Assembly (NCBI GenBank): GCA_039810885.1 | Contig: JBDHXV010000007.1 | Span: 1,695 to 65,694 of the forward strand | Source of the DNA: Chitinophagales bacterium | GTDB lineage: Bacteria > Bacteroidota > Bacteroidia > Chitinophagales > UBA10324 | DNA length: 64,000 nucleotides | Reading direction: 5' to 3' | Part shown: positions 10,507-38,879 of the stretch, piece after piece | Numbering within the stretch: position 1 is the first letter of the stretch | How the letters are laid out: every line of letters starts with the position of its first letter | Notes under the pieces: generated by a model | The model's input: the letters and a program-made list of their open reading frames with translations, nothing else | Database searches by the model: none | Told to the model about the DNA's origin: nothing | Program-made: the position numbers and the translations under genes

Positions 10507-10525
10507 TCTGGGGTTAAGTTATGGA

Positions 10526-20597: not shown

Positions 20598-23500
20598 CTA
20601 GTTTGGTATTCTATTAAAATATTCTTCTGTTAAGGATTTATAAAATGGTTTTAATCCGGGAGGCAAAGTACGATATAATTCAGTTTCTGTTTGACGCTTT
20701 TTAATATATTCTTGCAGCGATGGCGGTAGAATAGGGGTTAAATCTTTAGCCGTCTCCGACTTTCTTTTATCATCGGTATCTCTTTCTCGTTCTGACTTTT
20801 CGGCATCAAGTAATTTGGTTAATATTTCTTGTTGTCTTTTTAGCGTTTCAGTTGTAATGACCTTGTTTGCCAAATCGCGTTCTGTCTTATCCATCAAATC
20901 TTGTATTTGGTTTAGATTACCCAACCCGCTTTTTCCATCTTTATTATACTGCTCATTGAGTTGGCGGAGGGCATCTCTTATAGCAGATTGTTGGGCAGCC
21001 ATTTTTGCCAATTGCTCGCTCATACCGGAACCGTTTTGTTGCCCCGGTTTTTGCCCTTGCTTCATTTGCCCTTGCATTTCGGTTAGCTTATCATTAAGTT
21101 GTTTTTGCATCTGGGACATATTCGCAAGCGAGGGCTTTCCCTTGCCACCAGGCTTATTACACGATTGGTTCCCCTGCATCTTGGCATTCATCTCTTGTTG
21201 CATTTGTTTTAAACTTTCATCAAACATAAGTGCCAGGTTATTTAATGAAGTCATTATAAATTGTTGATTTGAGGCAGCTTGTGAGGAATATCGTTCTACT
21301 AAATTACTAAGTGCTTTTTCATTGTTAGTGTTGATAACATCTAATTGCTCATCAACATAGCTTTTAATGCTATACTGTCTTTTAGCTAAGCTCTGAATGC
21401 TGTCTTCTATCATTTTAATATCTTCTTTTACTCTGTTTTGATCTTTTATGAGTTGTACATATGAAGTTGATGTTGTGCTCACTTTCTTCATTTTCTTTAT
21501 AATTTCTTCTTGCTTAAAAGAAATACGAATAATGTTTTCTAAAATTTGCCGAATAGACTTCATATCTTCTTCCATCTGTTCTTTTTGCGCATTCTCCATA
21601 AAGTTCTCCATCGATTCAGCCATTTCTTTCATGTTTTTAGATGCATTCTTTTGATTATCAGTAGCTTTTGAATTGTTTCCTTTGTTGATTTCTTTAAGGC
21701 TCTTTTCTAAATTATTTGTTGTATTGTCAGATTTTTCATTCATATCCGGGAGATTCATCGGGTTTTCTAAATCGTTATTTAAGTCACCCAAATCTTTCAG
21801 ATCCTTCTTAATTTCTTCAAATTGTTTATTAATTTCTTCTTGTTTTTTACTCGTTTCTTCTTTGTTTTTTCCGAGTTGTGTTTCTTTTGATAACTCTTCT
21901 TGTTTATTTGCCAATTCTTTAAGGTTATCTTTTATGTCGTTAAACTTTTGTTCGAACTCTAGTTGTTTGAAGAGTGATAATAGCCGGTCTAGTTGTTTTT
22001 CAAGCTGTTCATTTTGCTTTTCGTTTGATTTTAATTGATCCAAGGTTGATTCTTTATTCATTTTCTCCATTAGGTCTTGAATCTTTTTTATCAACTCTTG
22101 CATCTCCGGAGAAAGAACTTGTTGTGCTAATTCATTTAACTGCTTTTGTTTCTCGGTAATTTCCGGATTCATTTGTTTTAATTCATTCATCAGATTATTG
22201 TTGTTCTGATAATCTTTCTGCATTTCTTGCAGTTTGTTATATAAGTCTTTTTGATGATTTAATAAATCATTGATCTTCTTTTTGTCTTCCCAATCCATAT
22301 TTTTCTTTTGCAACAAGTCTTGTTGTGATTTCTGTATGTCTTTATTAATATTTTGAATCTGAGAAATAGATTTTTCTAAATTTTTTTTCAACTGTTGATT
22401 GTGTTGGTCTATTAACTCGTTTAAGTGATTTTCAGAAGGAATATCAAGAATATATATGCGAGACTTGGATGACTTAGCTCCGTGAATGGCATCGTTGTCC
22501 CAAACTTCGAAGTAATAACTAATTTGATCTCCAGGCTTTAAACCAAGCGAAGAAAAATTAAAATAATAAGTGAATAAATCATTTTTACCTTTGATAGTCG
22601 ATACAGGCAAAGTCTTTTCAATATTGCGTTCAGGATATTCTTCATTCTTAATCGAGTATTTAAATTTAAGATTAGTGAGTCCGTAATCATCCGAAACAGC
22701 ACCAGAGAAGTAGTGAAGTCGATTTGCAGTGGTATCTATTATTTCATCTACATCAATAGACGGATACTGATCTTGAATAACATGAATAGAGTAACTTATC
22801 GAGTCATAAATATTGCTCTTGCCGTTTCGTGTAACAATTGAGTAAGGCGTTTCATTTAAAGCTTTATAAGAGACAGTAAAGTCATTATTTGATTTTTGCT
22901 GAGAGCGAGTGATGTTTGAGGGAAACAAAAGACTTAACTCATCAGTATTGTTGGTATTGAAAAGCCATCTTATTACTGTTCCTTCAGGTACACTTAAATC
23001 TCCTGTGTTTTTTACAGATTCATTAGTGAGTTGGGTGTAGGGAGGATATTGTAAATCAACAGTAAATGAATTGATCGTGGGTTTTCTGAGTGTATTTAAC
23101 TCATATTGCGTACTAGTAAATCTAGACGTTTTAAATCTAAACACCTTATTATTCTGAACTTTTGCAAAAGTGTATTCAAATATATTTTTCCCTTTTTTAG
23201 ACATTTTAACGTCAGAGCGATCTGTAACAATAAATAGCTCATCGGGTATTTGATTGCCTGTAATTTTAAGTTGCAGTGTGTAATCATTATTTTGAATAAC
23301 TTCAAGCTTACCGCTTAAGAATTGTATATTAAATGGGAATTCTTTTTCAAAGTCCGTCTGGTATTGGACGATACGTCGGGTGCTGTCTTTAATTATGTGT
23401 GAATTAGTGATATAAATAATAAGAAATAACAATACAACAGGGGCCAAGTATCGGAAAATATAGGTGTTGTTAAGTTTGAGATTAATTGCGTTAGTGAATG

Positions 23501-23939
23501 ATATTGGCTGCAACAAGATTGTTTTCTGAAGTATGCCGGCTTCTATGAGAGCTATATTTTGCGTTTGGTCCATTTCTTTTAACTCTAGGACACTTAATAA
23601 TCTGTCCTCAATTTCATGAAAGTGCTTCCCAATAATAATTGCTGCGTCTTTTGACGAGATTACGGGACCAAGCTTAAAATATTTAATGAGAGGTATGACA
23701 ACCCAATAGCTTAGGGAGGAAACAGCAAGAGCAATAAATCCCCAAAAGATAAAACTTCGAACTATGCTCGGCAGATAAAAAAAGTATTCGGATATGGTAA
23801 CAAAAAGAAAAGCAAAAAGGAGCGCAGCCGCTGCGAGTATGCATCCGCGAATCATTTGGTTTAAATAATATTTCCTGATAAAAGCATCGATACGCTGCAA
23901 TAGAGGTTGCATAGCCGGAGATGCAGTATTTGTTTTCAT
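20598..23939 (-). CDS. Large membrane-anchored coiled-coil protein (1113 aa), possibly DUF4175-like; function unknown
   Basis: Has N-terminal hydrophobic helices, a central beta-rich region, and about 500 aa of K/E/Q/N-rich heptad-like sequence. The DUF assignment is from memory only. Confidence 0.55.
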   Translation of the reverse strand: MKTNTASPAMQPLLQRIDAFIRKYYLNQMIRGCILAAAALLFAFLFVTISEYFFYLPSIVRSFIFWGFIALAVSSLSYWVVIPLIKYFKLGPVISSKDAAIIIGKHFHEIEDRLLSVLELKEMDQTQNIALIEAGILQKTILLQPISFTNAINLKLNNTYIFRYLAPVVLLFLIIYITNSHIIKDSTRRIVQYQTDFEKEFPFNIQFLSGKLEVIQNNDYTLQLKITGNQIPDELFIVTDRSDVKMSKKGKNIFEYTFAKVQNNKVFRFKTSRFTSTQYELNTLRKPTINSFTVDLQYPPYTQLTNESVKNTGDLSVPEGTVIRWLFNTNNTDELSLLFPSNITRSQQKSNNDFTVSYKALNETPYSIVTRNGKSNIYDSISYSIHVIQDQYPSIDVDEIIDTTANRLHYFSGAVSDDYGLTNLKFKYSIKNEEYPERNIEKTLPVSTIKGKNDLFTYYFNFSSLGLKPGDQISYYFEVWDNDAIHGAKSSKSRIYILDIPSENHLNELIDQHNQQLKKNLEKSISQIQNINKDIQKSQQDLLQKKNMDWEDKKKINDLLNHQKDLYNKLQEMQKDYQNNNNLMNELKQMNPEITEKQKQLNELAQQVLSPEMQELIKKIQDLMEKMNKESTLDQLKSNEKQNEQLEKQLDRLLSLFKQLEFEQKFNDIKDNLKELANKQEELSKETQLGKNKEETSKKQEEINKQFEEIKKDLKDLGDLNNDLENPMNLPDMNEKSDNTTNNLEKSLKEINKGNNSKATDNQKNASKNMKEMAESMENFMENAQKEQMEEDMKSIRQILENIIRISFKQEEIIKKMKKVSTTSTSYVQLIKDQNRVKEDIKMIEDSIQSLAKRQYSIKSYVDEQLDVINTNNEKALSNLVERYSSQAASNQQFIMTSLNNLALMFDESLKQMQQEMNAKMQGNQSCNKPGGKGKPSLANMSQMQKQLNDKLTEMQGQMKQGQKPGQQNGSGMSEQLAKMAAQQSAIRDALRQLNEQYNKDGKSGLGNLNQIQDLMDKTERDLANKVITTETLKRQQEILTKLLDAEKSERERDTDDKRKSETAKDLTPILPPSLQEYIKKRQTETELYRTLPPGLKPFYKSLTEEYFNRIPN

Positions 23940-24007: not shown

Positions 24008-24772
24008 TTAAATGTCTAAGATAAGAGATACGGGGCAATGGTCGCTATGAACGACTTCAGATAAGATATTACAGGAGGTAATTTTTGATGTCAGTTTGTC
24101 GCTGACAGCTTGGTAATCAATGCGCCATCCTTTATTTTTTTTTCGAGCACCTGCTCTATAACTCCACCAAGTATAGTTATGCGGCTCGGGATGCTCATAT
24201 CGGAATCCATCGGTCCATCCACTATCAAAAAATCGTCCCAGCCACTCACGCTCATCGGGTAAAAATCCTGATGAGTTTTTATTACCTATTGGGTCATGAA
24301 TATCAATAGGTTTATGGCAAATATTAAAATCACCGGAAATAACAACTTGATTGTATTCTTTTATTAACTGTTTGGAGTAGGGAAGGACATCATTTAAGAA
24401 TTGATATTTGAATTTCTGACGCTCGTCTCCGCTTGACCCAGATGGAAAGTAGGCGCTGATAAATAATACATCTCTTATTACGGCCCCCAGCCAGCGGCCT
24501 TCATTATCATAATCCTCAATACCTATTTGGAATATTGCCTTGTCCTGTTTGTGTTTTGAAAGAAGAGCAACGCCGCTGTATCCTTTTTTTATTGCAGGAG
24601 CCAATAAAACATTGTAATCAAGAGATTCAAACAATTCTTTATTAAATTGATTTTCATCGGCTTTAATTTCTTGTAAACAGAGAATATCGGGACTTTCTTT
24701 AGATACCCACTCAATGAAACCTTTGTTGATTGCTGAGCGAATGCCGTTGATGTTATAGGTGATAATTTTCAT
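24008..24772 (-). CDS. xth: Exodeoxyribonuclease III
   Basis: Contains MKIITYNINGIRSA, LCLQE and a C-terminal SDHCPV. Length is 254 aa. Confidence 0.92.
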   Translation of the reverse strand: MKIITYNINGIRSAINKGFIEWVSKESPDILCLQEIKADENQFNKELFESLDYNVLLAPAIKKGYSGVALLSKHKQDKAIFQIGIEDYDNEGRWLGAVIRDVLFISAYFPSGSSGDERQKFKYQFLNDVLPYSKQLIKEYNQVVISGDFNICHKPIDIHDPIGNKNSSGFLPDEREWLGRFFDSGWTDGFRYEHPEPHNYTWWSYRAGARKKNKGWRIDYQAVSDKLTSKITSCNILSEVVHSDHCPVSLILDI

Positions 24773-25545
24773 TATTCTAAATGATTTGATTTTTTAAAAA
24801 TCATAACATCAGTTGAATATGTAATGTGAGCCGGTTTGCGATTTACAGTAGCAAATTCGATAATACTTAGTATAGGCAGTGATAAATTGGGCAGCCATTT
24901 AAATCGTGTCCAGATTGATAAGGCATAGGATGGATATCGGAATACACGATTTGATTTAACTAATTGAAAACCTGCATTTTTCATTAGGTCGATATATTCT
25001 TGCTTTATTCGCTGATGATGAATGCTATCAATAATAATACTTGCATTGCTTCTGATTTGCTCAAAGAGAAATACTTCGCCGTTATCTTCTAGGATTCGAT
25101 TAAACTCTTTGAAAATGATTGTCAATTCATCATTGCCGGTATGTTGAAGTACCCAATAAGTAAATATCTTAGAAAATCGTTTATTACCATATTGCATGGG
25201 ATAGTTTGTCAGTAAATCATATACTATATTTTTATTTTGATGATTTATGTTGTTCGCAACACCTATCATTTCAGTTGATTTATCAATACCCACTATTTCT
25301 TTTACAAATGGTGCAGCATAGCTTGTTAGCCGACCCACGCCGCATCCGAAATCAAGCACTACATCCGAATGATTGAATCTCAGATATTTTTTTAATGATT
25401 GTTTGGTAAAATAATTTCTAAAAATGTTTTGATGAACAGTTGCCGGGCTGGTGTTGGCATCTAATACGGCGTTTTCGTTATTATGCGACAAGGCACGGGC
25501 GTTAAACTCCGAGATTACTTTTTCTTTATCTATGTGACTATCCAT
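24772..25545 (-). CDS. Class I SAM-dependent methyltransferase
   Basis: Motif I is VVLDFGCGVGRLT. Overlaps xth by 1 nt. Confidence 0.8.
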   Translation of the reverse strand: MDSHIDKEKVISEFNARALSHNNENAVLDANTSPATVHQNIFRNYFTKQSLKKYLRFNHSDVVLDFGCGVGRLTSYAAPFVKEIVGIDKSTEMIGVANNINHQNKNIVYDLLTNYPMQYGNKRFSKIFTYWVLQHTGNDELTIIFKEFNRILEDNGEVFLFEQIRSNASIIIDSIHHQRIKQEYIDLMKNAGFQLVKSNRVFRYPSYALSIWTRFKWLPNLSLPILSIIEFATVNRKPAHITYSTDVMIFKKSNHLE

Positions 25546-25594: not shown

Positions 25595-26605
25595 TTAAAG
25601 GCCTGATATTTTTTTTAATAAAGACCAGATTTTATATTGTATGGGATTAGAAATAATATCAATTCTTGCTGAAGGAAGTGCTGCAGTTCCAAAATCATTT
25701 TTAAATCTGGAAATACCATATATAAATTTATTATTGTTGTTATAAGTAGCGTTTTCCATAGCTACCTGTCCAAGCATGTATCTCTCATATCCTAATTGTT
25801 GATATTGCATAGCGATATTCCAGTGTAACAGATGCCCTGCGCCAAGTTGGTTTTTAATATTCCCGCCGAAAGAATACATTGCATATTTACCATACTGAAT
25901 AACAAAAGCAGCACTTAAAACTTGTTTATTATGTTTAGCAAAAAACAACTTAACGCAGTTGTGTTTGGATAGCAACTCAAACTTTTTCCGTACAAAGTCT
26001 GAATTTGGAGCGCTTTCAGATTGCTGTTTATAGGTTTCATTTACAAGAGATAAGAATGATTCAATATCGTTATTACTAATGATTTCAACACCTAATTTAA
26101 GAGCCTTATTGATATTGCGACGGTGAGACTCCTTTATCCTTTTCCATAAATCCTCTTTACTAATTGTTAAGTCAAAGTATGCGACTTTAAATAAGCGAGT
26201 TTGGCGGGGATTTGATTTCTCGTATAAAGCAATATTTTCTATGCCGCCGTTATAACCGGAGGAATAGATATAAACTATTTTTTGAGTTTTGATATAGTCT
26301 TCGATAGCATCGTTTAAATAATGCATTGCGTCAGAGTTTCCGGGCAATGTAATTGCTTCTCCAAGCATACTTAAAGATGAACTTATCTTTTTATAAATCG
26401 GTAATTTCTTGCTGATATATTCAAAAGCCTTAATTCCAGCAATCAGGGTACCATCCTTGTATAGTTGAAAATAAACAGGGATTTGATTAAATAATACACT
26501 TGTGCCATCATAATAACTTGTTTGCAAGCAGTTACTGTTAAGCAGGCAGAGCGCATTCCACTCTTCAATATGTAGTGGGGTATGATAGGTGATTTTAGTT
26601 TCCAC
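25595..26605 (-). CDS. FemAB-family / GNAT-fold (Acetyltransf_6-like) aminoacyl- or acyl-transferase
   Basis: 336 aa. The patterns ESHRRNINKALKLGVEI and HLLHWNIAMQYQQLGYERYMLG resemble FemABX/BioF2-like transferases. Assignment is by pattern only. Confidence 0.55.
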   Translation of the reverse strand: METKITYHTPLHIEEWNALCLLNSNCLQTSYYDGTSVLFNQIPVYFQLYKDGTLIAGIKAFEYISKKLPIYKKISSSLSMLGEAITLPGNSDAMHYLNDAIEDYIKTQKIVYIYSSGYNGGIENIALYEKSNPRQTRLFKVAYFDLTISKEDLWKRIKESHRRNINKALKLGVEIISNNDIESFLSLVNETYKQQSESAPNSDFVRKKFELLSKHNCVKLFFAKHNKQVLSAAFVIQYGKYAMYSFGGNIKNQLGAGHLLHWNIAMQYQQLGYERYMLGQVAMENATYNNNNKFIYGISRFKNDFGTAALPSARIDIISNPIQYKIWSLLKKISGL

Positions 26606-26608
26606 CGA

Positions 26609-29563
26609 TTAAGCAAATAATATTTTATAAAAATCAAAGAGAAGATTTGATGCTTGCTTTACATCTGTTACCGGGGCAATAGGGGTGCTCAACACATTCC
26701 GGAGGTTGTTGGCGGAGACTATTTTGTTGTAAGTAATTAAGTAATCTATGCGATTTAACTTTTTTGAATCTAAATTTGACAGTTGCTCATGTTGATTTGA
26801 AGTCTGGATAAGAAGAGGCTGATATATAATTCGAACACTTGGGTTAAGTTTTTTTATTTCTAAAGCGATAATCAGTGTTTTTTTATTCACGCAGTGGATC
26901 GCCTCAAACCCATAGCGTGCAATTATATCGGAGATACGCTTTATATTTCTTGATGTATGGTCGGTGCCCGGATAGTTTAGAGGCAGTTTCTTAAAAAGTA
27001 ATCCTTCAGAAGTTTTGCCATAGTCTAACTTTCTATCATACAATCCGATTGCTGTTATGGAATAATAATTTGCAAGACCTTCAAATAAATCGGTAATTAA
27101 AGAATTGAAATATTCAAATTGGTCTAATAAGACGACAACACTTTTTCTTCTTTTTATTTGATACGGAGATTCAGAAGGGAGGTTAAGTGCTCTTTTTACG
27201 ACACGAACTAATGGTTTATATTTTCGAGCAACATCAATTATATTGGGGTAGTCGGTGTGGCTCTTGGGTGTGGCATTCATTATATCCAAGAATTGTTGTT
27301 CCGTCAATCCAAATTTTTTAATAATAAATATCTTATCCTCTCGGAGTAGGTTTTCATCAATAATAGGTTGAGCCAAGAGTTCGTAAGCCTCTTCTTTTGT
27401 CATTTGGCCGCTACATATTAATGTTGAATAATGAGAATAACGTTTATCTATATGGAATTTATTAGGTAAGATATAGGATTGATAGAAGCGAGTAATTATA
27501 GACTCATAATGCTTGCCTCCATAATCTCGCCACCCCAACTCATCGGCAAGGATTTTTTTCGCTTCTTTCTTAATGTAATTCACATGATCAAGAAGCTTTA
27601 TGGTTTTAATGCGGTAAACTTTATTATAAAGGATTGTTTTAAAAAAGCCTAAGCGAGGAAAGGTCTTTAGGGGGATGGTACCAAATCTATTATGGATCGC
27701 CTTAATGTTTATCGTATCCGACTTTAAATAGTTCCAAGATTCGGGCAACATTCCTTCTGTTACCTGACTCTCGCCACTTAGTATATATTTTATACCATGC
27801 TTGGCGGCTTCATTAAAAAGTGCTGCAAAGATGGCATGGTCTGAGGGGGCTTCTAAGTCAACGACAGAAGCCTTGAGATAACTTAATTGTAAGTCTCTAA
27901 ACTCGTCCCATTTAATTACGTGAGTATATAAATCGATACCCAACTTGGTCACAATGTTTTCAATATTCTTTACAGCTAATTCGGTATTCCATCCGTTATC
28001 AAGGTGCACAGCCAGAGGTCTAAGTCCGGCCTTAACAGTAAGATAAGCTACATAAGAACTGTCAACTCCACCGCTTAATCCTATAATGCAATCATATTTT
28101 TTCCCCTTCCCTTCGCTCTTAATTTTTTCAATTAAGTTATTAAAGCGCTTATTTCTCTCATTGTCAGTAACTAGATTGTCATAATTGATTTTATCGTACA
28201 ACACACAATGATTGCATAGTCCATCTTCATTAAAATAAATATCGGGGTCTGCAAAATTGTTGAATACACAACGAACACATTCTCGATAGTTGTTATGCTT
28301 ATGTATGGGTTCGGGAAGGCGGAACTGAATGCCCGTTAATGGTTTAAAATCTGTAAAGTGTTGTAAAGAGATTTTATGATATAAACTTATGAGATGATAC
28401 TTTTCGGTATCCCAGCTCAATTTATGCTTACTCTTAATTATGTTTTCCTTATAGTAGCTATAGTTGTTTAGTATAAGATTAAAGCCATCTAAAAAGGCTC
28501 CTTTTCTGTCGCCATTAATACAAGCACCTATTTTGTATAAGCTAATAATATTCTTATGCTCGGGTTGTGCAGCAGATAAAATAGGCAACTCAGACATTAC
28601 ATAATGAAACAACTTATTTTCTAAGCCAAGCCAGTAGGATAAGTATTTTTTATTCCATGTTGGAATTATGCCCACATCGCACGAGGCCAAAGTATTAACA
28701 ATCTTGGAGGAGTCAATTATGTCGTGGAAGAAAATATTTGTTAAGTTAGACTCGGCGACTAATTGTTTGAAATATTCTTTATGTCCGCCATCTTTACAAA
28801 ATATAACAAGAGCAATATTTTTTTGATTGCCCAAGTCGCTAATTGCTTGTTCAATGTTGCGGTTCTTTTTATAAATCAAAAAAGAAAACAGTACGACAAC
28901 CTTGTGATCTTTAGGAATGTTAAATTTTTTTCTTACGTAATCGTTCCGTTCAGTTATTTCTTCATATAGAACAAAGTTTCTTACAACAGTGACCGGGCTC
29001 TTTGCTTTCAGATATTTCTGAAGATCATCCGCAAGAGATTGATTGACTGTAATGATATGATCAATATACTTTTTATCATACCATTCACGAATAATTTCAA
29101 ACTTTCGGACAAGCTGTGATTTAATCATCACTATGGGAGACCAAGAAGAGTAGTGTAGTGGCCATTCATGAAACAACTCATGAGAGTCGTAGATTAAAAC
29201 AACTTCGGGCAGCTTTTTTTTAATAAGAACGCCCAGATGCAACATTTGCCAATCGTGACAATGAAGTATGTGCGGCTTATAGGAGGCAATAAGCGCTGCT
29301 AATTCTTTTAAATAACTAATGGATGTTTTAAAGTCGTGTATTTTTTTATCAAAAAGACGTTTGACTTTTATACCATTGATAGTTTCTTCCTTTGGGAGGG
29401 ATTGTTTATAAACAGCGAAGAGCGTAAGATCGTACCCGGCTTCTGCGATAGAAAATGCTTCGCGATATATCCGTTGATCATTCGTGAACTCATTATCACA
29501 TAACATGGCAACTCGAATATCAGAAACCGATTGAATGCTGTTGCCAATAATATTATCGGACAT
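26609..29563 (-). CDS. Tri-modular fusion protein: GT4-like glycosyltransferase (aa 1-400), WbuX-type PP-loop N-acetyl-sugar amidotransferase (aa about 425-790), and an extra GT4 N-terminal-half-like domain (aa about 805-984)
   Basis: The N-terminal module is a clear paralog of the 394-aa ORF at 30907-32091 (HILHCHDWQMLHLG vs DVLHCHDQYMLHVG; LSYWLGLENKLFHYVMSELPIL vs LSYWLALDNKLFTYIMSEIPIL). The middle module has CxxC...CxxC (aa 429-453) and the PP-loop SGGVDS (nt 28058-28075). The C-terminal module repeats the pattern EAIHC...LEIKKLNPSVRIIY. Confidence 0.75.
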   Translation of the reverse strand: MSDNIIGNSIQSVSDIRVAMLCDNEFTNDQRIYREAFSIAEAGYDLTLFAVYKQSLPKEETINGIKVKRLFDKKIHDFKTSISYLKELAALIASYKPHILHCHDWQMLHLGVLIKKKLPEVVLIYDSHELFHEWPLHYSSWSPIVMIKSQLVRKFEIIREWYDKKYIDHIITVNQSLADDLQKYLKAKSPVTVVRNFVLYEEITERNDYVRKKFNIPKDHKVVVLFSFLIYKKNRNIEQAISDLGNQKNIALVIFCKDGGHKEYFKQLVAESNLTNIFFHDIIDSSKIVNTLASCDVGIIPTWNKKYLSYWLGLENKLFHYVMSELPILSAAQPEHKNIISLYKIGACINGDRKGAFLDGFNLILNNYSYYKENIIKSKHKLSWDTEKYHLISLYHKISLQHFTDFKPLTGIQFRLPEPIHKHNNYRECVRCVFNNFADPDIYFNEDGLCNHCVLYDKINYDNLVTDNERNKRFNNLIEKIKSEGKGKKYDCIIGLSGGVDSSYVAYLTVKAGLRPLAVHLDNGWNTELAVKNIENIVTKLGIDLYTHVIKWDEFRDLQLSYLKASVVDLEAPSDHAIFAALFNEAAKHGIKYILSGESQVTEGMLPESWNYLKSDTINIKAIHNRFGTIPLKTFPRLGFFKTILYNKVYRIKTIKLLDHVNYIKKEAKKILADELGWRDYGGKHYESIITRFYQSYILPNKFHIDKRYSHYSTLICSGQMTKEEAYELLAQPIIDENLLREDKIFIIKKFGLTEQQFLDIMNATPKSHTDYPNIIDVARKYKPLVRVVKRALNLPSESPYQIKRRKSVVVLLDQFEYFNSLITDLFEGLANYYSITAIGLYDRKLDYGKTSEGLLFKKLPLNYPGTDHTSRNIKRISDIIARYGFEAIHCVNKKTLIIALEIKKLNPSVRIIYQPLLIQTSNQHEQLSNLDSKKLNRIDYLITYNKIVSANNLRNVLSTPIAPVTDVKQASNLLFDFYKILFA

Positions 29564-30308
29564 TAGATTGTCTAAAATTTTCGTCGGGGAAATTAATTAA
29601 TATCGCATTTTTATTACCGCTAAACACAAATAAACTGCCTGCCGCCGCACCGGCAGCCCCCATTTTTAATACGGCTTTTATTTCGTTATAATCTTTGGCG
29701 CCACCGGAGATAATAACAGGCAGAGATGTAATTCGAAGTATCTCGGCTAATAAATCTAAATTATACCCCTGCTTCGTTCCTTCGCGATCAATATCCTGAA
29801 GGATTATTTCGCCAACACCCGCATCTTCGAGATATTTAACATGGTCTATTATGGTAGTGTTGAGTCGGTTAGATCCACTTTTTGTATAAACACCGGTTTT
29901 GCCAAACCAATTTTTCTTAACATCAACAAATGAGGCTATTGTGCTGGTGCCAAATGTTTTACAGGCTTGAATTAAGAATTCTCTGTTTTCTGTTGCGGTA
30001 TTGATGCACACTTTTTCAATTCCACAACGCAAAACAGATTCGATGTCGTTCATAGACGAGATGCCGCCACTATAACTTAAAGGCATAAAGGCTTCGCCGG
30101 CCATTTCAAATAAGAGGTTCAGGTTAATAGAGGTTCTTCTTTTTCCTGCATCAATATCAACGATCATCAATTCGTCTGCAAACTTTGAGTTAAATATTTT
30201 AACCGTGTTAATAGGATCACCAATATATATATCGTTCTTGAAGTTCTTTGTTTTTACAACACCACTATTGTGTAATAACAATACCGGAATAATTCGAGGG
30301 CGATACAC
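29553..30308 (-). CDS. HisF-like cyclase-fold subunit (WbuZ-type, polysaccharide-associated paralog of imidazole glycerol phosphate synthase)
   Basis: 251 aa, (beta/alpha)8 HisF pattern (RIIPVLLL, DELMIVDID, GGI, GAAGAAAGSLF). Adjacent to HisH-like and WbuX-like genes and not to other his genes. Confidence 0.85.
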   Translation of the reverse strand: MYRPRIIPVLLLHNSGVVKTKNFKNDIYIGDPINTVKIFNSKFADELMIVDIDAGKRRTSINLNLLFEMAGEAFMPLSYSGGISSMNDIESVLRCGIEKVCINTATENREFLIQACKTFGTSTIASFVDVKKNWFGKTGVYTKSGSNRLNTTIIDHVKYLEDAGVGEIILQDIDREGTKQGYNLDLLAEILRITSLPVIISGGAKDYNEIKAVLKMGAAGAAAGSLFVFSGNKNAILINFPDENFRQSNVR

Positions 30309-30910
30309 TATAGATTATGAATAAAATTAGTGAGCAATGCCATTCCAAAACGATGGCTTTTTTCAGGATGAAACTGAACACCGAAAATATTCTCTTTCTG
30401 AAAGCCGGAAACAAATTCATCGCCGTAGTTTGTAGTAAGCAGAGTGTCTATAGAATTGTTGAGCACAACATGATAAGAGTGTACAAAGTAAAATGAGCTT
30501 TCCTCATTTTGAATTATTTTATTATCCTTAGCAATGTGCACATCGTTCCATCCCATGTGGGGCACCCGTATAGATGTGTTTCTAAACCGAATGACTGAAG
30601 CATCTATCCACCCCAGCCCCGGCAATGTTCCCTCCTCACTGTGTTTGCACATTAATTGCATACCTAAACAAATACCAAGCACGGGGGTTTTCTTTATTAA
30701 CACCTTTTCGTTAAGTATGTCAAAAAGATGATTGTTGTGTATGAGTTTCATACCATGGTCGAAGGCTCCGACCCCGGGAAGAATTAAGTGTGAGGCTTCG
30801 CGAATGATGGAAGGATCATTGCTGATCTCAGACCGAAATCCTAAGTAAGAAAACATGTTTTGCACACTTTGGATATTTCCTAACCCGTAATTTACAATGA
30901 CAATACTCAC
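30308..30910 (-). CDS. HisH-like class I glutamine amidotransferase subunit (WbuY-type)
   Basis: Contains GICLGMQ (Cys nucleophile) and VQFHPEKS (His/Glu). Length is 200 aa. Overlaps the HisF-like gene by 1 nt. Confidence 0.88.
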   Translation of the reverse strand: MSIVIVNYGLGNIQSVQNMFSYLGFRSEISNDPSIIREASHLILPGVGAFDHGMKLIHNNHLFDILNEKVLIKKTPVLGICLGMQLMCKHSEEGTLPGLGWIDASVIRFRNTSIRVPHMGWNDVHIAKDNKIIQNEESSFYFVHSYHVVLNNSIDTLLTTNYGDEFVSGFQKENIFGVQFHPEKSHRFGMALLTNFIHNL

Positions 30911-32091
30911 GCGTTGTGGGTTGTTTTATTGTTGATGATGGTTTGATAAAGCGATAGAAGTTTCTTTTGCTCTACATCCCAGCACAATTCCTTTTTAGCG
31001 ATTCGGCAATTTTGCTTATACCGTTCTTTATTTGCAATAAGATTATGAATAGCCGATTGAATCGTATTAATTTTTTCAGGATTAATACACACCCCAACAT
31101 CATGGTTATTGATTACTTTCTCATATTCGGGTTGTGCCGTTCCAAGTATTGGAATTTCACTCATTATATAGGTAAACAACTTATTATCTAATGCAAGCCA
31201 ATATGACAGTTTCATTTTATACCAGGCCGTTACTAAGCCAATATCGCAACAGGAAATAGTCTCCTCAATAGTATTCACTGGGATTAAGTCGTGGAAGTAA
31301 ATATTCTTATATCCACACTTATCGACATAATTTTCAAACCAGATGCGGCGTTCGTTTCTTCTGGTTATAATAATAAGGTGCACATTAGGCATTTGACCAA
31401 TGGCATCAACAAAGTTTTCCATAAGATTGGTATATCTATAAACATTAACACCGATATACACGATAGCGCAATCATTCGCCGGAATATTGAATTTTTGTCT
31501 TAGGGTTTGATCTGTTTTATTGGGCAGTTCTTTGAAAGAGGGAATGTTGCGGGTAACTATAGGGTCACTTTTTAACTTAAAGTATTTTTTAAGAATTGCA
31601 GCAATCGAATCATTAACGGTAATCAAGTATTCAATTTTTTGCCCATTTCTTTTTTCACGGCGCATTTCATAATATCGAACGATATACGATTTGAGTTGAT
31701 TTATGATTGACTGATTAGAATAGTTTACGGGCCAAGAATGGAACAACTCGCGCGATTCATAAATAAGTATCGTGCCGGGGCACATAGATTTTACTATAGC
31801 ACCAACATGAAGCATATATTGATCGTGGCAGTGTAACACATCGAATTTTTCTTTTGCAATCTTCAAAGCAAATTCTTCTAATTTCCGTCTATTAGAAAAT
31901 GCCCAATAATCCGGAGGTATAACTCTTCGTATTGTTAAATTATCTTCTTTTGATTCTTGCAGAAGTTGGTCATCTGATAAGCAATAAAGAAAAAGTTCGA
32001 TTGGAAGGGATTTTAAGCTTTTTATTTCTAAAACCGCTCTTCTATCTGTTACTAAGGTGTTATCTAGGAGTACGGCTACTCTAAGTGCCAT
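30907..32091 (-). CDS. GT4-like glycosyltransferase, paralog of the N-terminal module of the 984-aa fusion
   Basis: Colinear similarity to aa 1-400 of the fusion is visible by eye along the whole length. Confidence 0.7.
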   Translation of the reverse strand: MALRVAVLLDNTLVTDRRAVLEIKSLKSLPIELFLYCLSDDQLLQESKEDNLTIRRVIPPDYWAFSNRRKLEEFALKIAKEKFDVLHCHDQYMLHVGAIVKSMCPGTILIYESRELFHSWPVNYSNQSIINQLKSYIVRYYEMRREKRNGQKIEYLITVNDSIAAILKKYFKLKSDPIVTRNIPSFKELPNKTDQTLRQKFNIPANDCAIVYIGVNVYRYTNLMENFVDAIGQMPNVHLIIITRRNERRIWFENYVDKCGYKNIYFHDLIPVNTIEETISCCDIGLVTAWYKMKLSYWLALDNKLFTYIMSEIPILGTAQPEYEKVINNHDVGVCINPEKINTIQSAIHNLIANKERYKQNCRIAKKELCWDVEQKKLLSLYQTIINNKTTHNA

Positions 32092-32107: not shown

Positions 32108-32740
32108 TCAGTTAATAAACTTCAAAACCTCGAAAGCTTCAGCAAAGGTAGCTCCGGTCTGAACGCCCCGCGTTATGGCCAAGGCCCGTAAAAAATTCTC
32201 ACTGCAATAGGAGCGATGTGCCTGAGATTTATACGCATTAAGAGCCTCGACTTTTTTTGCCACGTGGCGTTCGTCAAGCTTAATAAAGAAATTTGTTTTA
32301 ATGGAAAGGTTGTTCCACGGGAGCTCGTATCCAATAATTGAAACATCCTTAAATGCGCGCAGGGTTTCATTGTGAATGACCTGGTGATCCTGATGAAGGT
32401 CGGTTGAGCAGGGAGTTAGTACGAGTGTAGGGCATATTTCTTTTTTCAAGCGCACCATATCTTCTAGAATCTCTTGTCGATTAGTATAAAATGTGCGCAC
32501 ATCATAATCAAACAAACGTAAGTTTTGAGGAGCAATACCAAGTAATTGGGTAGCAGCCTTAACTTCTTTTTCAAGCGTATCGGGAGCGAGGCCTTCGCCA
32601 AGAGATTTTCTACAGAGAGAAAATGCCACATAATAAACCACTTTTCCCTGCTCAACAAATTTTGAGATGCTTCCACCGCAACCAAGCTCCCCATCATCGG
32701 TATGTGGGGCCATTATTAAAATCTTTTCGTTATTAATCAT
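32108..32740 (-). CDS. PIG-L/LmbE family N-acetyl-sugar deacetylase
   Basis: Contains APHTDDGELGCGG (AHPDD-type motif) and a DLHQDH (HxDH) zinc motif. Length is 210 aa. Confidence 0.8.
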   Translation of the reverse strand: MINNEKILIMAPHTDDGELGCGGSISKFVEQGKVVYYVAFSLCRKSLGEGLAPDTLEKEVKAATQLLGIAPQNLRLFDYDVRTFYTNRQEILEDMVRLKKEICPTLVLTPCSTDLHQDHQVIHNETLRAFKDVSIIGYELPWNNLSIKTNFFIKLDERHVAKKVEALNAYKSQAHRSYCSENFLRALAITRGVQTGATFAEAFEVLKFIN

Positions 32741-34704: not shown

Positions 34705-35847
34705 TTATTTCGTAACAGATAAATGGGACTCGAGAATCTTAAAATAATATTTTTCATATTGAGGTAAGATGTTGTCTATGTCGAATCGCTTAGCTTGCTC
34801 ATAAGCATTATGCTTGAATGATTTCAATAGAACATCATCGGAGAGAATGCGAATAGCATTGGCCGCCATGTCGTTAGTGTCGCCAACATTACTCATAAAT
34901 CCGGTTTTGCCGTGGATGTTAACCTCAGGAATACCACCGGTATTAGTAGAGACTACCGGAACTCCACATGCCATTGCCTCTAATGCAGCAAGGCCAAAGC
35001 TCTCACTTTCTGAAGGCATCAAAAATAAATCACTAATGGCAAGCAGTTCTTCAACGGCTTCTTGTTTTCCAAGAAAGCGCACATCGTCATAAACATGTAA
35101 TTCGCGACAAAGTTGTTCGAGATATTGGCGATCGGGGCCATCGCCAATCAAGAGCAATTTTGAAGGAATGCGTTCGTGCACTTTTTGAAATATAAGAATC
35201 ACATCCTTGGTGCGCTTTACTTTGCGGAAGTTAGAAGTGTGTATCAGAATTTTTTCATCATTGGGAGTAATAGCCTTTTTAAAGTGCTCCTTTCGAACTT
35301 TTGTAAATCGTGCAGTGTCTATAAAATTGCTGATTACCTCAATTTCTTTATTGATTTTAAAATTTTGATGCGTATCGTTCCTTAAGCTATTTGAAACTGT
35401 TGTTACACCATCACTTTGATTAATAGAGAACTCAACAACCGGAGCATACGAAGCATCTTTCCCGACTAGCGTAATATCGGTGCCATGCAGTGTTGTAATA
35501 TAGGGTAGATAGGTGTTTTTTGTTTTTAAAATTTCTCGTGCCATAAATGCAGCAGAGGCATGCGGTATTGCATAATGTACGTGTAATAAGTCCAGTTTTT
35601 CATATAAAGCCACATCCACGATCTTACTGGCTAATGCACTTTCGTATGGTGCGTGCTCAAACAGAGGATAGTCGGCATAATTTACCTCGTGGTAATAAAT
35701 GTTTTCTATGAATGAATCGAGCCTTGCCGGCACCCTATAGGTAATAAAATGAACTTGATGGCCCTTGAGAGCTAATGCTTTGCCAAGTTCGGTTGCTATT
35801 ACACCGCTGCCGCCAAAAGTAGGATAGCAAACTATTCCTATTCGCAT
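34705..35847 (-). CDS. bshA: N-acetyl-alpha-D-glucosaminyl L-malate synthase (bacillithiol GT4) BshA
   Basis: The N-terminus MRIGIVCYPTFGGSGVIATELGKALALKGHQVHFIT closely follows the BshA signature. GT4 EX7E region ESFGLAALEAMACGVPV is present. Confidence 0.78.
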   Translation of the reverse strand: MRIGIVCYPTFGGSGVIATELGKALALKGHQVHFITYRVPARLDSFIENIYYHEVNYADYPLFEHAPYESALASKIVDVALYEKLDLLHVHYAIPHASAAFMAREILKTKNTYLPYITTLHGTDITLVGKDASYAPVVEFSINQSDGVTTVSNSLRNDTHQNFKINKEIEVISNFIDTARFTKVRKEHFKKAITPNDEKILIHTSNFRKVKRTKDVILIFQKVHERIPSKLLLIGDGPDRQYLEQLCRELHVYDDVRFLGKQEAVEELLAISDLFLMPSESESFGLAALEAMACGVPVVSTNTGGIPEVNIHGKTGFMSNVGDTNDMAANAIRILSDDVLLKSFKHNAYEQAKRFDIDNILPQYEKYYFKILESHLSVTK

Positions 35848-35912: not shown

Positions 35913-38879
35913 CTAAAAGTGCTTCTGCTTATCGGGCTGAGGCACCAATGCGGTGTAAATTATAGCATGAACTCTACCACGGATGTCGTAAGTATTAATT
36001 TTTTTATTGGAGTCATCGGGAAACGTGCGATTTGATAAAAAAATAAACGTCAAATCGTATTCAGGATCAGACCAGATACAAGTACCCGTGAACCCCTGGT
36101 GGCCAAAGGTTTTACCTGATGCTTTATCTGTACATGGACTTTTTTTATTTACATCTGTTTCATGTTTGTCAAACCCAAGCCCGCGCCGGCTGATATTTGA
36201 TTGTTTAGAAGTAAATAGAGACACGGTACTACTATCAAATATTCTTACCCCACCATAGGTACCTTTGTTTAAAAGAAGCTGATGAATTATTGCCAGTCCA
36301 TTAGCATCGGAGAATAATCCGGCATGACCGGCTACCCCTCCAAGCAACGCCGAGGCGGGATCATGTACAAAGCCCTGTAGTTTTTGTTTGCGAAAGTCCG
36401 AGTCGTAATTGGAGGGGACGATATTTTTTTTTTCTATCGTTTGAAGGGGTAAAAAAGTGGTTCGATAAATTCCGAGAGGAGCATAGATTTCACATTGTAC
36501 ATAATTATTCAATGTCGTATTGGTTACCGCTTCAACTACCCATCCTAATAAAATAAAATCGAGGTCGCTATACAAATATTCTTTTTTGGGAGTAACCGGG
36601 CTTTCTGCAATCATCTTTTTTATGGTATCTAAATAAGTATAATGCAGATATATATTTTCGGCCACTTGAATGTAGTGTTTTCTATCGCGAGTTGAGCTAA
36701 AGGCATCATCTATATTTTGAATAGATTTATAAAAAGGAATCCATGCCTTCAGCCCTGCTTGATGCAATAACAAATCCTTAAGAATAATATCGGCTTTATT
36801 CGTTCCGGCAAGCCAGGGCAGATATTTTTTTAAGGGGTCGTTCAATTTGATTTTCTTCTCCTCATACAATTTCATTATGGCAAGAGTTGTTGCAGCACTT
36901 TTGGTAATAGATGCTATATCATAAACAGATTCTTCACGTACGGAATCAATTTGGTCATACGTATAAAAGCCGAAAGAACCATTGTAAATAACGTGGTTTC
37001 CTTTTGCAACAAGCACACGACATCCGGGAAAAACTCGATCTCGTATAGCTACTTGTATAATGGAATCAATTCGATTTAACCTTCCCGGGATGATTTCATA
37101 ATCTATCGGGTCGGTATAGTTTAAGCGGATATCCGAAGTAAGTAGGCCGCTGCCCTCTTTAATCGAAGGTGTTACACTAACCGGGAGAATGCCTCGAGCG
37201 GATATGCCGCCAAATAATAGTTGTGCCGATAAATCCTGCACATCACTTTCTCCACTATAAGCCATTAACAGATAGGGGGAGTTTTCAAAATATTTTAATG
37301 AATAAGGACTACCGAACAATGTAACTATGGTCGGGCATTGTTTTTCAAGTTGAGCAACAAATATTTTTGCATTATCTGTAATACCATAGTAATTTTCATA
37401 CTTGCGATTCATTTGATGCATACCAATAAAAATCACATTGTACTTCCTCAACTGTTCTGCTAATTTTTGAAAATCTTCTTTGCTTGCATTTTTATCAATC
37501 ACAAATGATTTAACATCTGCATACCTCCTCAAACTCTTTTGAAAAACCGTTTCGTTGAAAGAGCCGATACTTACAGAAGCAAATCGAAAAGTATCTAAAC
37601 GCTGTTTGAATGGAATTAAATTATTTTGATTATGCACCAGAGTCAAGGCGGCCTGAGTAAGTTCGCGCTTGATATGTTCGGCTTCGGGGCTATTGATGTC
37701 AGTTTTTAAGTTTTTAAGTGCTACTACTTGCTTTTTATTTAACCCGAGCCAATACTTGCATGCTAAGATCTTCTTTACTCTTGCATCTATTTCTTCTTGT
37801 TTTATCAGACTATCTTTTACGGCCTTCTTAATTGCTACAATAGCTCCCGAAACATTTCCCGAGAATAACAACACATCATTTCCCGCTAAAAGTGCTCTTA
37901 CATCCACCTCTCCCGGTGCATATAAATCAGCAACACCCCTCATATTCAGGGCATCTGTAAAAACTAAGCCTTTGAATCCCAGTTTATCTTTAAGCAAATC
38001 ATTAATGATATTCGAGGAGAGCGTAGATACGCTGACAGAACTATCGAGGGCCGGAATGTTCAGGTGGGCAACCATAACGCTTCCTACACCATTATTAATT
38101 AATTGCTTGAATGGATATAATTCTAATGAATCGAGGCGGCTTGCAGACGCATTAATGACAGGCAAAGTCTTATGCGAATCTTTGTCGGTATCTCCATGCC
38201 CCGGAAAGTGCTTGGCACATGCCAAAACGCGCCCATCTTGTAACCCTTTAGCATAAGCCAATCCTTTGTTAGCCACATTAAATTTGTTTTCTCCAAAAGA
38301 GCGGTCTCCAATAACAGGGTTTAGAGAATTGTTATTAATATCAACAACGGGAGAGAAACTGATATGAACGCCCATGCGACGGCACTCTCTCGCTATCTCC
38401 AATCCCGCTTTATATATCAATTGATTGTTTTGAACAGCTCCCCACATTAGTTGCCTATGAAAATCAGGAGTAGAGTCAAGCCGCATGGATAGCCCCCATT
38501 CAGCATCTTGCGCAATCATTAATTGTACCGCAGATATAGATTGAAAGTAATTTGTAAGCAATACTTGTCGTGTAGGGCCGCCCTGCATAAAGATGAGTCC
38601 GCCGATATGATAATTTTTTATTAAGTATTCAATACGCTTTTTCTCGGCATCATCTTTATTGGAATAGGCCGCTACCATAAAAAGTTGCCCTAATCTCTCA
38701 TCTGGGGTCATTGCGTTAAATAATGAATCGGCCCAGCGAGCACTTTCTGTCGATAAAAATGGAGGATCAATTGGGGCTTGTTCCTGATTATGGGGAGGCA
38801 CGGATACAGTTACCTGCCCTGAGAGATAAACTATTAAAGTCAGCAGAAAAGTAATCCGTCGCATTGGATTGTAAAGCAC
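35913..38879 (-). CDS. GH3 (NagZ-like beta-N-acetylhexosaminidase) domain fused to a beta-lactamase-fold serine hydrolase
   Basis: The N-half has KHFPGHGDTDKDSHK. The C-half has an SxxK motif (ASITKSA) and class C/AmpH-like patterns. Has a signal peptide. Confidence 0.85.
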   Translation of the reverse strand: MLYNPMRRITFLLTLIVYLSGQVTVSVPPHNQEQAPIDPPFLSTESARWADSLFNAMTPDERLGQLFMVAAYSNKDDAEKKRIEYLIKNYHIGGLIFMQGGPTRQVLLTNYFQSISAVQLMIAQDAEWGLSMRLDSTPDFHRQLMWGAVQNNQLIYKAGLEIARECRRMGVHISFSPVVDINNNSLNPVIGDRSFGENKFNVANKGLAYAKGLQDGRVLACAKHFPGHGDTDKDSHKTLPVINASASRLDSLELYPFKQLINNGVGSVMVAHLNIPALDSSVSVSTLSSNIINDLLKDKLGFKGLVFTDALNMRGVADLYAPGEVDVRALLAGNDVLLFSGNVSGAIVAIKKAVKDSLIKQEEIDARVKKILACKYWLGLNKKQVVALKNLKTDINSPEAEHIKRELTQAALTLVHNQNNLIPFKQRLDTFRFASVSIGSFNETVFQKSLRRYADVKSFVIDKNASKEDFQKLAEQLRKYNVIFIGMHQMNRKYENYYGITDNAKIFVAQLEKQCPTIVTLFGSPYSLKYFENSPYLLMAYSGESDVQDLSAQLLFGGISARGILPVSVTPSIKEGSGLLTSDIRLNYTDPIDYEIIPGRLNRIDSIIQVAIRDRVFPGCRVLVAKGNHVIYNGSFGFYTYDQIDSVREESVYDIASITKSAATTLAIMKLYEEKKIKLNDPLKKYLPWLAGTNKADIILKDLLLHQAGLKAWIPFYKSIQNIDDAFSSTRDRKHYIQVAENIYLHYTYLDTIKKMIAESPVTPKKEYLYSDLDFILLGWVVEAVTNTTLNNYVQCEIYAPLGIYRTTFLPLQTIEKKNIVPSNYDSDFRKQKLQGFVHDPASALLGGVAGHAGLFSDANGLAIIHQLLLNKGTYGGVRIFDSSTVSLFTSKQSNISRRGLGFDKHETDVNKKSPCTDKASGKTFGHQGFTGTCIWSDPEYDLTFIFLSNRTFPDDSNKKINTYDIRGRVHAIIYTALVPQPDKQKHF

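Follow-up and report, generated by a model that had tools for sequence, protein, structure and literature searches.

The question raised by this locus is what kind of enzyme results when an N-acetyl sugar amidotransferase (NASAT) shares one frame with glycosyltransferase (GT) modules. The DNA analysed, a 64,000-nucleotide (64-kb) stretch of the Chitinophagales contig JBDHXV010000007.1, hereafter the window, carries on its minus strand a single unbroken open reading frame (ORF) of 984 amino acids (aa) at 26609..29563, with an ATG start and a TAA stop. Read on the plus strand, 26609-29563 contains many stop codons. NASATs make positively charged acetamidino sugars, which are found in O-antigens, flagellin glycans and archaeal N-glycans; to our knowledge, their substrates and stage of action are poorly defined and there is one structure only. 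We propose, with a probability of about 0.7, that the product of the ORF, in a Chitinophagales-like member of the Bacteroidota from activated sludge, is a cytoplasmic multi-enzyme that builds a modified amino-sugar glycan, in which module 1 would transfer a sugar, the NASAT would amidinate and module 3 would be a dead but folded appendage. The finding combines known kinds of enzymes, a NASAT and GT4-like transferases, and has no categorical novelty. The parts of the ORF are:

26609..29563, minus strand: whole ORF, TAA stop at 26609-26611 included
28364..29563, minus strand: module 1 (GT1), aa 1-400, complete GT4-like GT-B glycosyltransferase (Pfam/NCBIfam, paralogy, AlphaFold2 (AF2) and Foldseek)
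28283..28363, minus strand: linker, aa 401-427, unconserved (orthologue identity 8-27%), with the predicted local distance difference test (pLDDT) down to about 29
27275..28282, minus strand: module 2, NASAT (WbuX), a PP-loop ATP pyrophosphatase, aa 428-763 (TIGR03573, 8WEX)
28205..28279, minus strand: tetracysteine Zn-ribbon CxxC...G-x-CxxC, with C429, C432, G448, C450 and C453 invariant in orthologues
28058..28075, minus strand: PP-loop SGGVDS, aa 497-502, with S497, G498, G499, D501 and S502 invariant in orthologues
27164..27274, minus strand: inter-module connector, aa 764-800, containing a predicted helix at 775-792 (alignment and AF2)
26612..27163, minus strand: module 3, the remnant of a third transferase (GT3), aa 801-984, N-terminal Rossmann domain and C-terminal helix only (orthologue alignment, BLASTP, AF2)
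26615..26662, minus strand: terminal helix, aa 968-983, aligned to the last helix of full-length GT3 (...LLNLYQNIFA), the helix that folds back against the N-domain in GT-B enzymes (alignment, AF2)

Identity of modules 1 and 2

Analysis of the central module indicated that it belongs to the NASAT family. The TIGR03573 (WbuX) model matches aa 428-763 with 281.3 bits, against a cut-off of 203.2, and is covered from position 3 to 344 of 344, while the top Foldseek match of the whole AF2 model is the Legionella NASAT (LpNASAT, PDB 8WEX; E 4e-16, TMt 0.62-0.64). These two results bear out the WbuX/PP-loop assignment made earlier in a sequence-only reading of this DNA. By sequence 8WEX is only weakly similar (E 4e-6 across some 80 residues), and the structural alignment has 17% identity. 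The paper on the LpNASAT structure, in which there is no in-vitro amidination assay, gives as signatures of the family a PP-loop SGGxDS and a Zn-binding CxxCxn[GN]xCxxC (PMC10607449). Both are present in module 2: the tetracysteine motif reads C429-x2-C432 ... G448-L-C450-x2-C453, and the cysteine knuckle at aa 429-453 and SGGVDS at nt 28058-28075 lie exactly where they had been placed. By these signatures, its TIGR03573 score and the superposition of its model on 8WEX, the module resembles WbuX of E. coli O145, WbpG of P. aeruginosa O5, PseA and LpNASAT. The characterised NASATs are single-domain proteins of about 370-470 aa, whereas module 2 sits between two GT-type modules.

Module 1 was identified as a complete GT4-like transferase, as had been proposed. 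Pfam Glyco_transf_4 (PF13439) matches aa 37-198 with 61.8 bits, above the gathering threshold (GA) of 28.5, and aa 1-401 are colinear with the neighbouring 394-aa ORF, here called GT0 (36% identity, E=7e-90). The model of module 1 has the two-Rossmann GT-B fold, and its Foldseek matches include MshA (3c4q, TMt 0.70) and BshA (5d00, TMt 0.72), the matches to these two enzymes ranging in TMt from 0.69 to 0.72 with E about 1e-12 to 1e-14. The motifs of the module are intact (HCHD at 101-104, YDSHELFHEWP at 125-135, and TWNKKYLSYWLGLENKLFHYVMSELPIL), and its candidate EX7E region reads GLENKLFHYVMSELP. The predicted fold and the Glyco_transf_4 N-domain are those of retaining GT-B enzymes of the GT4 type such as MshA, BshA and sucrose-phosphate synthase (SPS). 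Unlike the named GT4 enzymes, the subfamily of module 1 has its own motifs (HCHD, YDSHELFHSWP, TWNKK.LSYW), and all named NCBIfam GT models score far under their cut-offs on it, the closest being the 'WcaI family'.

In the mechanism that we favour, module 1 would transfer a sugar. The NASAT would convert ATP to AMP and pyrophosphate at its PP-loop, adenylating the amide oxygen of the N-acetyl group of a sugar, and would then exchange the activated oxygen for ammonia to give an acetamidino group, a chemistry that we infer from family membership. Module 3 would no longer transfer sugar and would most likely persist, weakly constrained, as a folded structural appendage.

Excision of the donor-binding half of GT3

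Module 3 had been described as an added domain that repeats the N-terminal half of the GT-like module. There is no Pfam or NCBIfam match for aa 788-984. Pairwise comparison aligned this region with aa 44-195 of module 1 (26% identity, E=5e-6) and with the 394-aa ORF (E=2e-4), and both strings that had been compared, EAIHC...KKLNPSVRIIY and HILHC...KKLPEVVLIY, are present in the protein. The homology to a GT N-half (E=5e-6) stands; the notion of an added domain does not, since P0002, P0003 and the permuted forms described below have a complete GT3, of which module 3 is the leftover. A tblastn search of the 64-kb window agreed with the earlier count of three GT N-domain copies at the locus and revealed only two copies of the C-half; no stray or translocated C-half of GT3 was found elsewhere in the window by the same search.

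A protein search recovered about 30 clusters of relatives; a single-protein scan of genome contigs had yielded no relative, and an alignment-based scan did recover relatives. The order GT1-NASAT-GT3 with a complete third GT is found in P0002 (1186 aa) and P0003 (1160 aa), both 57-60% identical to the window protein, which is the most divergent member of this class (class A). A permuted order, NASAT-GT3-GT1, occurs in proteins of about 1177-1178 aa from many Chitinophagales and Chitinophagaceae metagenome-assembled genomes (MAGs), and in P0011 (1518 aa) it is followed by a C-terminal FemAB-like domain, giving four modules. P0010 (1008 aa) has a truncated third module, as in the window protein. 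The loci of P0010, P0002 and P0003 are gene-for-gene syntenic with the window (bshA, LysM glucosaminidase, hpt, cassette, exonuclease III, a 1113-aa DUF4175 protein, ybeY, mnmG, nadA), and this shared order marks the three proteins as true orthologues. Over its whole length the GT3 of P0002 is 47-54% identical to the middle GT of the permuted proteins and only 36-37% identical to the paralogous C-halves of the window, which argues that the complete GT3 is ancestral and the N-half a remnant.

A four-way alignment shows about 190 aa to be missing from the window protein and from P0010; they correspond exactly to the C-terminal, donor-binding Rossmann half of GT3. After the gap the last helix is kept (...DFYKILFA and ...LLTLYNNIF, against ...LLNLYQNIFA in full-length GT3). 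Judged by this alignment, the donor-binding half was deleted in frame and with domain precision in the window lineage, and module 3 is homologous to a GT yet an incomplete member of the family, the donor-binding Rossmann domain being absent. The boundaries differ by a few residues between the two truncated proteins, a ...LINWDKS... segment being kept by P0010 and absent from the window protein, so that the latter has its own version of the deletion.

To test whether one shared deletion accounts for both truncated proteins, we built a neighbour-joining tree from 701 ungapped columns of module 1 and the NASAT, with the permuted proteins as outgroup. On this thin sampling the topology was (window,(P0010,(P0002,P0003))), with bootstraps of 198/200 and 196/200. 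A relative-rate check against the outgroup showed the window lineage to be only slightly faster, and in no cassette gene is the window nearer to P0010 than to the loci with full-length proteins. A single shared ancestral deletion was considered and is unsupported, as the same bootstraps (198/200, 196/200) stand against a clade of window and P0010. Two independent, domain-precise deletions are probably the most parsimonious account of the alignment and the tree. The gutted third module is specific to two lineages, that of the window and, separately, that of P0010.

The sequence of module 3 evolves differently from the rest of the protein. Module 1, GT0 and the full-length GT3s all have intact HCHD and YDxHELFHSWP motifs; module 3 of the window has HCVN for HCHD and YQPLLIQTS for YDxHELFHSWP, and that of P0010 has HCFG and YDITGFNHNK. 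Between the window protein and its orthologues, identity is 61-63% in module 1, 68-70% in the NASAT and 27-33% in module 3; in the same columns P0002 and P0003 are 77%, 76% and 69% identical. Among the eight 1008-aa members of the P0010 cluster, variable columns make up 2.0% of module 1, 1.5% of the NASAT and 9.8% of module 3. Against the orthologous GT3, module 3 of the window shows 30-33% identity. Constraint on module 3 is strongly relaxed, not obviously absent: all eight full-length members of the P0010 90%-identity cluster retain the length of 1008 aa.

The structure predicted for module 3 modelled alone (pLDDT 75; predicted TM-score (pTM) 0.77) is an alternating strand-helix Rossmann domain closed by a long terminal helix. 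Its best PDB match by Foldseek is 6LDQ (E 5.8e-6, TM 0.62-0.67), an engineered A-domain of the Thermosynechococcus elongatus SPS (GT4) that comprises residues 27-220 and 406-426 (PMC7264703). The last helix of SPS belongs structurally to the N-domain, and of three truncations only the 6LDQ construct crystallised (PMC7264703). As in module 3, a GT-B N-domain is joined straight to the last helix and the B-domain is gone; the difference is that 6LDQ is a laboratory construct, whereas in module 3 the same excision arose in evolution, apparently on two occasions, and at the end of an enzyme with several domains. By analogy with this construct, module 3 should fold but not catalyse transfer. Complementation of module 3 in trans by a separate C-half was also considered and rejected, because no such half is present in the window and the A- and B-domains of SPS are inactive when mixed in trans (PMC7264703).

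Two other accounts of module 3 were weighed against that of a dead appendage. The N-domain of a GT-B enzyme normally bears the acceptor site, and module 3 could be a repurposed pseudo-glycosyltransferase that binds an acceptor glycan or lipid for the NASAT or module 1, or that oligomerises. Its frame, its length of about 185-205 aa and its Rossmann fold have persisted in two lineages that are about 60-68% identical in their constrained modules, the 1008-aa length is common to all eight full-length members of the P0010 cluster, and a conserved patch survives (ARxGFEAxHC, K..LN, IDYLI). However, HCHD and YDxHELFHSWP were lost in both lineages, differently in each, the substitution rate is several-fold above that of the other modules, and the truncated pair are less alike (27.5%) than either is to the intact proteins (32-37%), which points to independent drift, not to a shared new function. 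We therefore hold such repurposing to be unlikely. Equally to be weighed is a functionless tail in the course of being lost, in which case the third transferase step would be dispensable and further truncation neutral or slightly harmful to folding. The strongly accelerated divergence and the decayed motifs agree with this, as does the fact that the truncated proteins are not sisters (198/200, 196/200), from which it would follow that the same half was lost more than once and that GT3 activity is under weak selection in the clade. A neutral C-terminal tail should, however, soon gain stops or indels, and there are none in the window strain, in its variant (see below) or in the eight members of the P0010 cluster; module 3 is also still predicted to fold. 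A tail without function seems doubtful to us.

The gene cassette and its putative product

The ORF is part of a minus-strand operon with dense gene packing; it shares 11 nt with the end of the upstream HisF2-like gene and is separated by a 3-nt gap from the next gene. Genes for a HisH and a putative HisF2 protein lie directly upstream, with overlapping ends, a putative ammonia-supplying pair that was absent from the sequence-only reading. The other genes of the cassette are:

32108..32740, minus strand: PIG-L/LmbE-family de-N-acetylase, 210 aa, first gene of the cassette (profiles, synteny)
30907..32091, minus strand: GT0, stand-alone paralogue of module 1, 394 aa, same GT family (Pfam and BLASTP to module 1)
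30308..30910, minus strand: HisH-type class-I glutamine amidotransferase, 200 aa (TIGR01855, 233 bits, cut-off 105)
29553..30308, minus strand: HisF-like protein of the AglZ/HisF2/WbuZ type, 251 aa (best models NF038364 and TIGR03572; Pfam His_biosynth E 6e-54)
25595..26605, minus strand: FemAB-like/Acetyltransf_6 protein, 336 aa (profiles; fused homologue in P0011)
24772..25545, minus strand: S-adenosylmethionine-dependent methyltransferase, 257 aa, last gene of the cassette (Pfam, synteny)

The fusion would act within this seven-gene cassette of PIG-L, GT0, HisH, HisF2, the fusion itself, a FemAB-like acyl/aminoacyl transferase and a methyltransferase, with the adjacent HisH glutaminase and its putative HisF2-type partner drawing ammonia from glutamine in the manner of the WbuXYZ and AglXYZ triads. 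In the WbuX/WbuY/WbuZ and AglX/AglY/AglZ systems, the latter being the archaeal acetamidino triad reportedly treated by Jones et al. (2012, J Bacteriol), the gene of a NASAT likewise has those of a HisH-type glutaminase and a HisF2-type partner beside it. There each of the three proteins has its own gene, in O-antigen, exopolysaccharide (EPS) or N-glycan loci, whereas in the window the NASAT is fused to GTs and the cassette adds PIG-L, FemAB-like and methyltransferase genes. The same triad is present as separate genes in a Sphingomonas EPS cluster (PMC11340318).

We mapped the cassette by tblastn over 80 related loci. Its Chitinophagales-type form is PIG-L, GT0, HisH, HisF2, a NASAT+GT3+GT1 fusion in either order, FemAB-like and methyltransferase. 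MAGs of Flavobacteriales and Bacteroidales have a simpler form (PIG-L, one GT, WbqC-like (PF08889), FemAB-like, methyltransferase). In these loci the WbqC-like gene (in L029, 11188-11844, plus strand; in L020-L031, the gap between GT and FemAB-like genes) fills the slot of HisH/HisF2/NASAT, and this hints that the two could be functionally alternative modifications. The uncharacterised homologues P0002, P0003, P0010, P0011 and the permuted proteins share the modules and the seven-gene cassette, and those of class A also share the flanks.

That the same modules are repeatedly fused in different orders makes channeling, as the sequence-only reading had suggested, a reasonable expectation, and amidination and transfer would then be physically coupled. 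A bolder version of this idea is that the recurrent fusion of a NASAT with two GTs in two orders, and once with a FemAB-like domain as well, marks an assembly-line complex, which would form the acetamidino group at the transfer step or immediately ahead of it, on an enzyme-bound intermediate and not in a free pool of nucleotide sugars; in the window lineage the gutted GT3 would serve as a non-catalytic holder of the acceptor or as a scaffold. We regard this version as tentative and on balance improbable.

Several observations weigh against the reading of the ORF as a cytoplasmic multi-enzyme for a modified amino-sugar glycan. The C-half of module 1 is below the Pfam thresholds (Glycos_transf_1, PF00534, aa 211-372, 19.3 bits against a GA of 26.4; PF13692, 17.9 against 27). 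The whole-protein AF2 model (mean pLDDT 79, pTM 0.46) has an unreliable inter-domain arrangement. The HisF2-like gene is just under the cut-offs of its best models (298.8 against 310 for NF038364, AglZ/HisF2; 232.4 against 299.7 for TIGR03572, WbuZ); the true hisF model scores much lower on it than the AglZ and WbuZ models (147, cut-off 294.6). The reading frame and fold of module 3 have been kept across deep divergence, and a specific function such as ligand binding may exist. Finally, the cassette has no gene for a flippase, a polymerase or a priming transferase, and its product may therefore be something other than a polysaccharide.

This last point leads to another possibility, that the cassette makes a soluble or lipid-linked small glycoconjugate by the logic of mycothiol and bacillithiol and no surface polysaccharide. 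A GT4 enzyme would add N-acetylglucosamine to a small acceptor, PIG-L would deacetylate it, the FemAB-like protein would re-acylate the amine and the methyltransferase would finish the product, with the NASAT amidinating a second N-acetyl group. In agreement with this, module 1 has its best structural matches in MshA and BshA, PIG-L is always first in a cassette that has FemAB-like and methyltransferase genes and no flippase or polymerase, and three genes upstream of PIG-L there is a genuine bshA (568 bits against a cut-off of 274). However, SPS, glycogen synthase and PimA have nearly as good Foldseek scores, the simpler Flavobacteriales cassette of L029 lies amid a DegT aminotransferase and further GTs typical of polysaccharide loci, a gene for a membrane-bound O-acyltransferase (MBOAT) follows the cassette in permuted-class loci, and the PIG-L protein is far under the BshB1/BshB2 cut-offs (67.8 against 182.5). 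We consider such a product quite unlikely, and keep the glycan-building multi-enzyme as the preferred reading.

Additional observations were made on the cassette genes and their surroundings. PIG-L is 84-86% identical to its orthologues in L001-L003 and every other cassette gene 48-70%; on these sequences, PIG-L is under much stronger constraint than its neighbours. The bshA gene, at 34705-35847 on the minus strand (TIGR03999), is placed in the same way in the syntenic class-A loci L001-L003 and not in the permuted-class L004, and a link between bacillithiol synthesis and the cassette deacetylase is possible. In the permuted-class loci (L004, 15356-17928, plus strand; L005) the cassette is followed by the MBOAT acyltransferase and a 382-aa protein without a Pfam match, the former of which suggests O-acylation of an exported product. 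A second FemAB-like and methyltransferase pair, or a partial cassette, lies nearby in L010 (17512-21171) and L025 (3390-6356, 9364-12901). A PDB sequence search with the FemAB-like neighbour gave no match. The cassette is also present on L007 and L014, MAG contigs titled 'uncultured Bifidobacteriaceae bacterium', whose taxonomic labels look wrong; L007 appears to share the class-A flanks, since it is the recorded contig of P0003, and the locus of that protein, L003, has the gene order of the window.

Elsewhere in the window, the 1113-aa DUF4175 protein (20598-23939, minus strand) has N-terminal membrane segments and a long low-complexity centre rich in K, E, Q and N; its position is conserved in all class-A syntenic loci and it is the source of the strong negative AT skew at 20-22 kb. 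A 988-aa fusion of a GH3 (NagZ-like) glycosidase and a beta-lactamase or penicillin-binding-protein-like domain (35913-38879, minus strand) lies upstream of bshA also in L002 and L003. The genes infB (initiation factor IF-2, 958 aa) and nusA (7630-11770, minus strand) account for GC and AT skews that are strongly negative at 8-12 kb, and are ordinary. An Rfam scan of the 64-kb window gave no match and no rRNA.

Integrity and occurrence of the fusion

Runs in public archives contain near-identical sequence, their sources being activated sludge, wastewater, wetland and soil. We compared contigs from 4 runs of 4 different studies, of wastewater and activated sludge, over 26400-29700 and found no indels or joints. 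The entire ORF is spanned by a 147-kb contig (depth 68) and by a 25.6-kb contig; the latter is a strain variant with 15 substitutions in the ORF, 7 of them non-synonymous, and 0 stops, and the variant protein is recorded from 12 contigs. The joining of three modules in one uninterrupted frame, as first read from the sequence with no strand given, is genuine, and the indel-free contigs of the 4 runs together with the in-frame variant effectively exclude an artefact at the contig level. That the long ORF was produced by an assembly error or frameshift fusing separate genes is extremely improbable, because, although the evidence over the region consists of contigs and not raw reads, 4 independent runs agree without indels, two contigs cross the whole ORF, the variant on its 12 contigs keeps the frame and orthologues with 57-60% identity are fused in the same arrangement.

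The frequency of the fusion was assessed by searching 1.84 billion 50%-identity representatives and examining the 150 best matches. About 60 of these 150 are at least 580 aa long, with the NASAT in one half. We sampled 10 such proteins: 6 have GT4/GT1 domains flanking the NASAT on either side, 1 has an LPG_synthase_TM domain and 3 have an unrecognised partner. The statement that WbuX-type enzymes stand alone thus holds for the characterised enzymes and fails for the databases. Two-module proteins with the same GT family are known in both orders, GT-NASAT (P0035, P0048, P0161) and NASAT-GT (P0036), and in P0090 (701 aa) the NASAT is fused to a transmembrane domain of the lysyl-phosphatidylglycerol-synthase type. 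The 1008-aa orthologues (MBU6205807.1, GDX48409.1 and others) carry the automatic NCBI name 'N-acetyl sugar amidotransferase'. In literature searches on GT-NASAT fusions, no paper describing them was found. The GT-NASAT fusion is known to the databases, fairly common, also in metagenomes, and unstudied, and its three-module form is confined to a clade of Bacteroidota.

For annotation, the name 'N-acetyl sugar amidotransferase' hides two more modules, one of them probably dead. These data bring out a seven-gene glycan cassette that is conserved in Bacteroidota of fresh water and wastewater and has remained unstudied. The truncated module 3 is a natural experiment on the modularity of GT-B enzymes, as it is the same construct that crystallographers had to engineer. 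A NASAT welded to its partner GTs gives direct access to the question of which transfer step amidination is coupled to. If the assembly-line version were true, the cassette would provide, in a single polypeptide, a system to settle at which stage NASATs act, and there would be a natural case of a GT-B enzyme that became a pseudoenzyme when its donor domain was exactly excised, twice independently.

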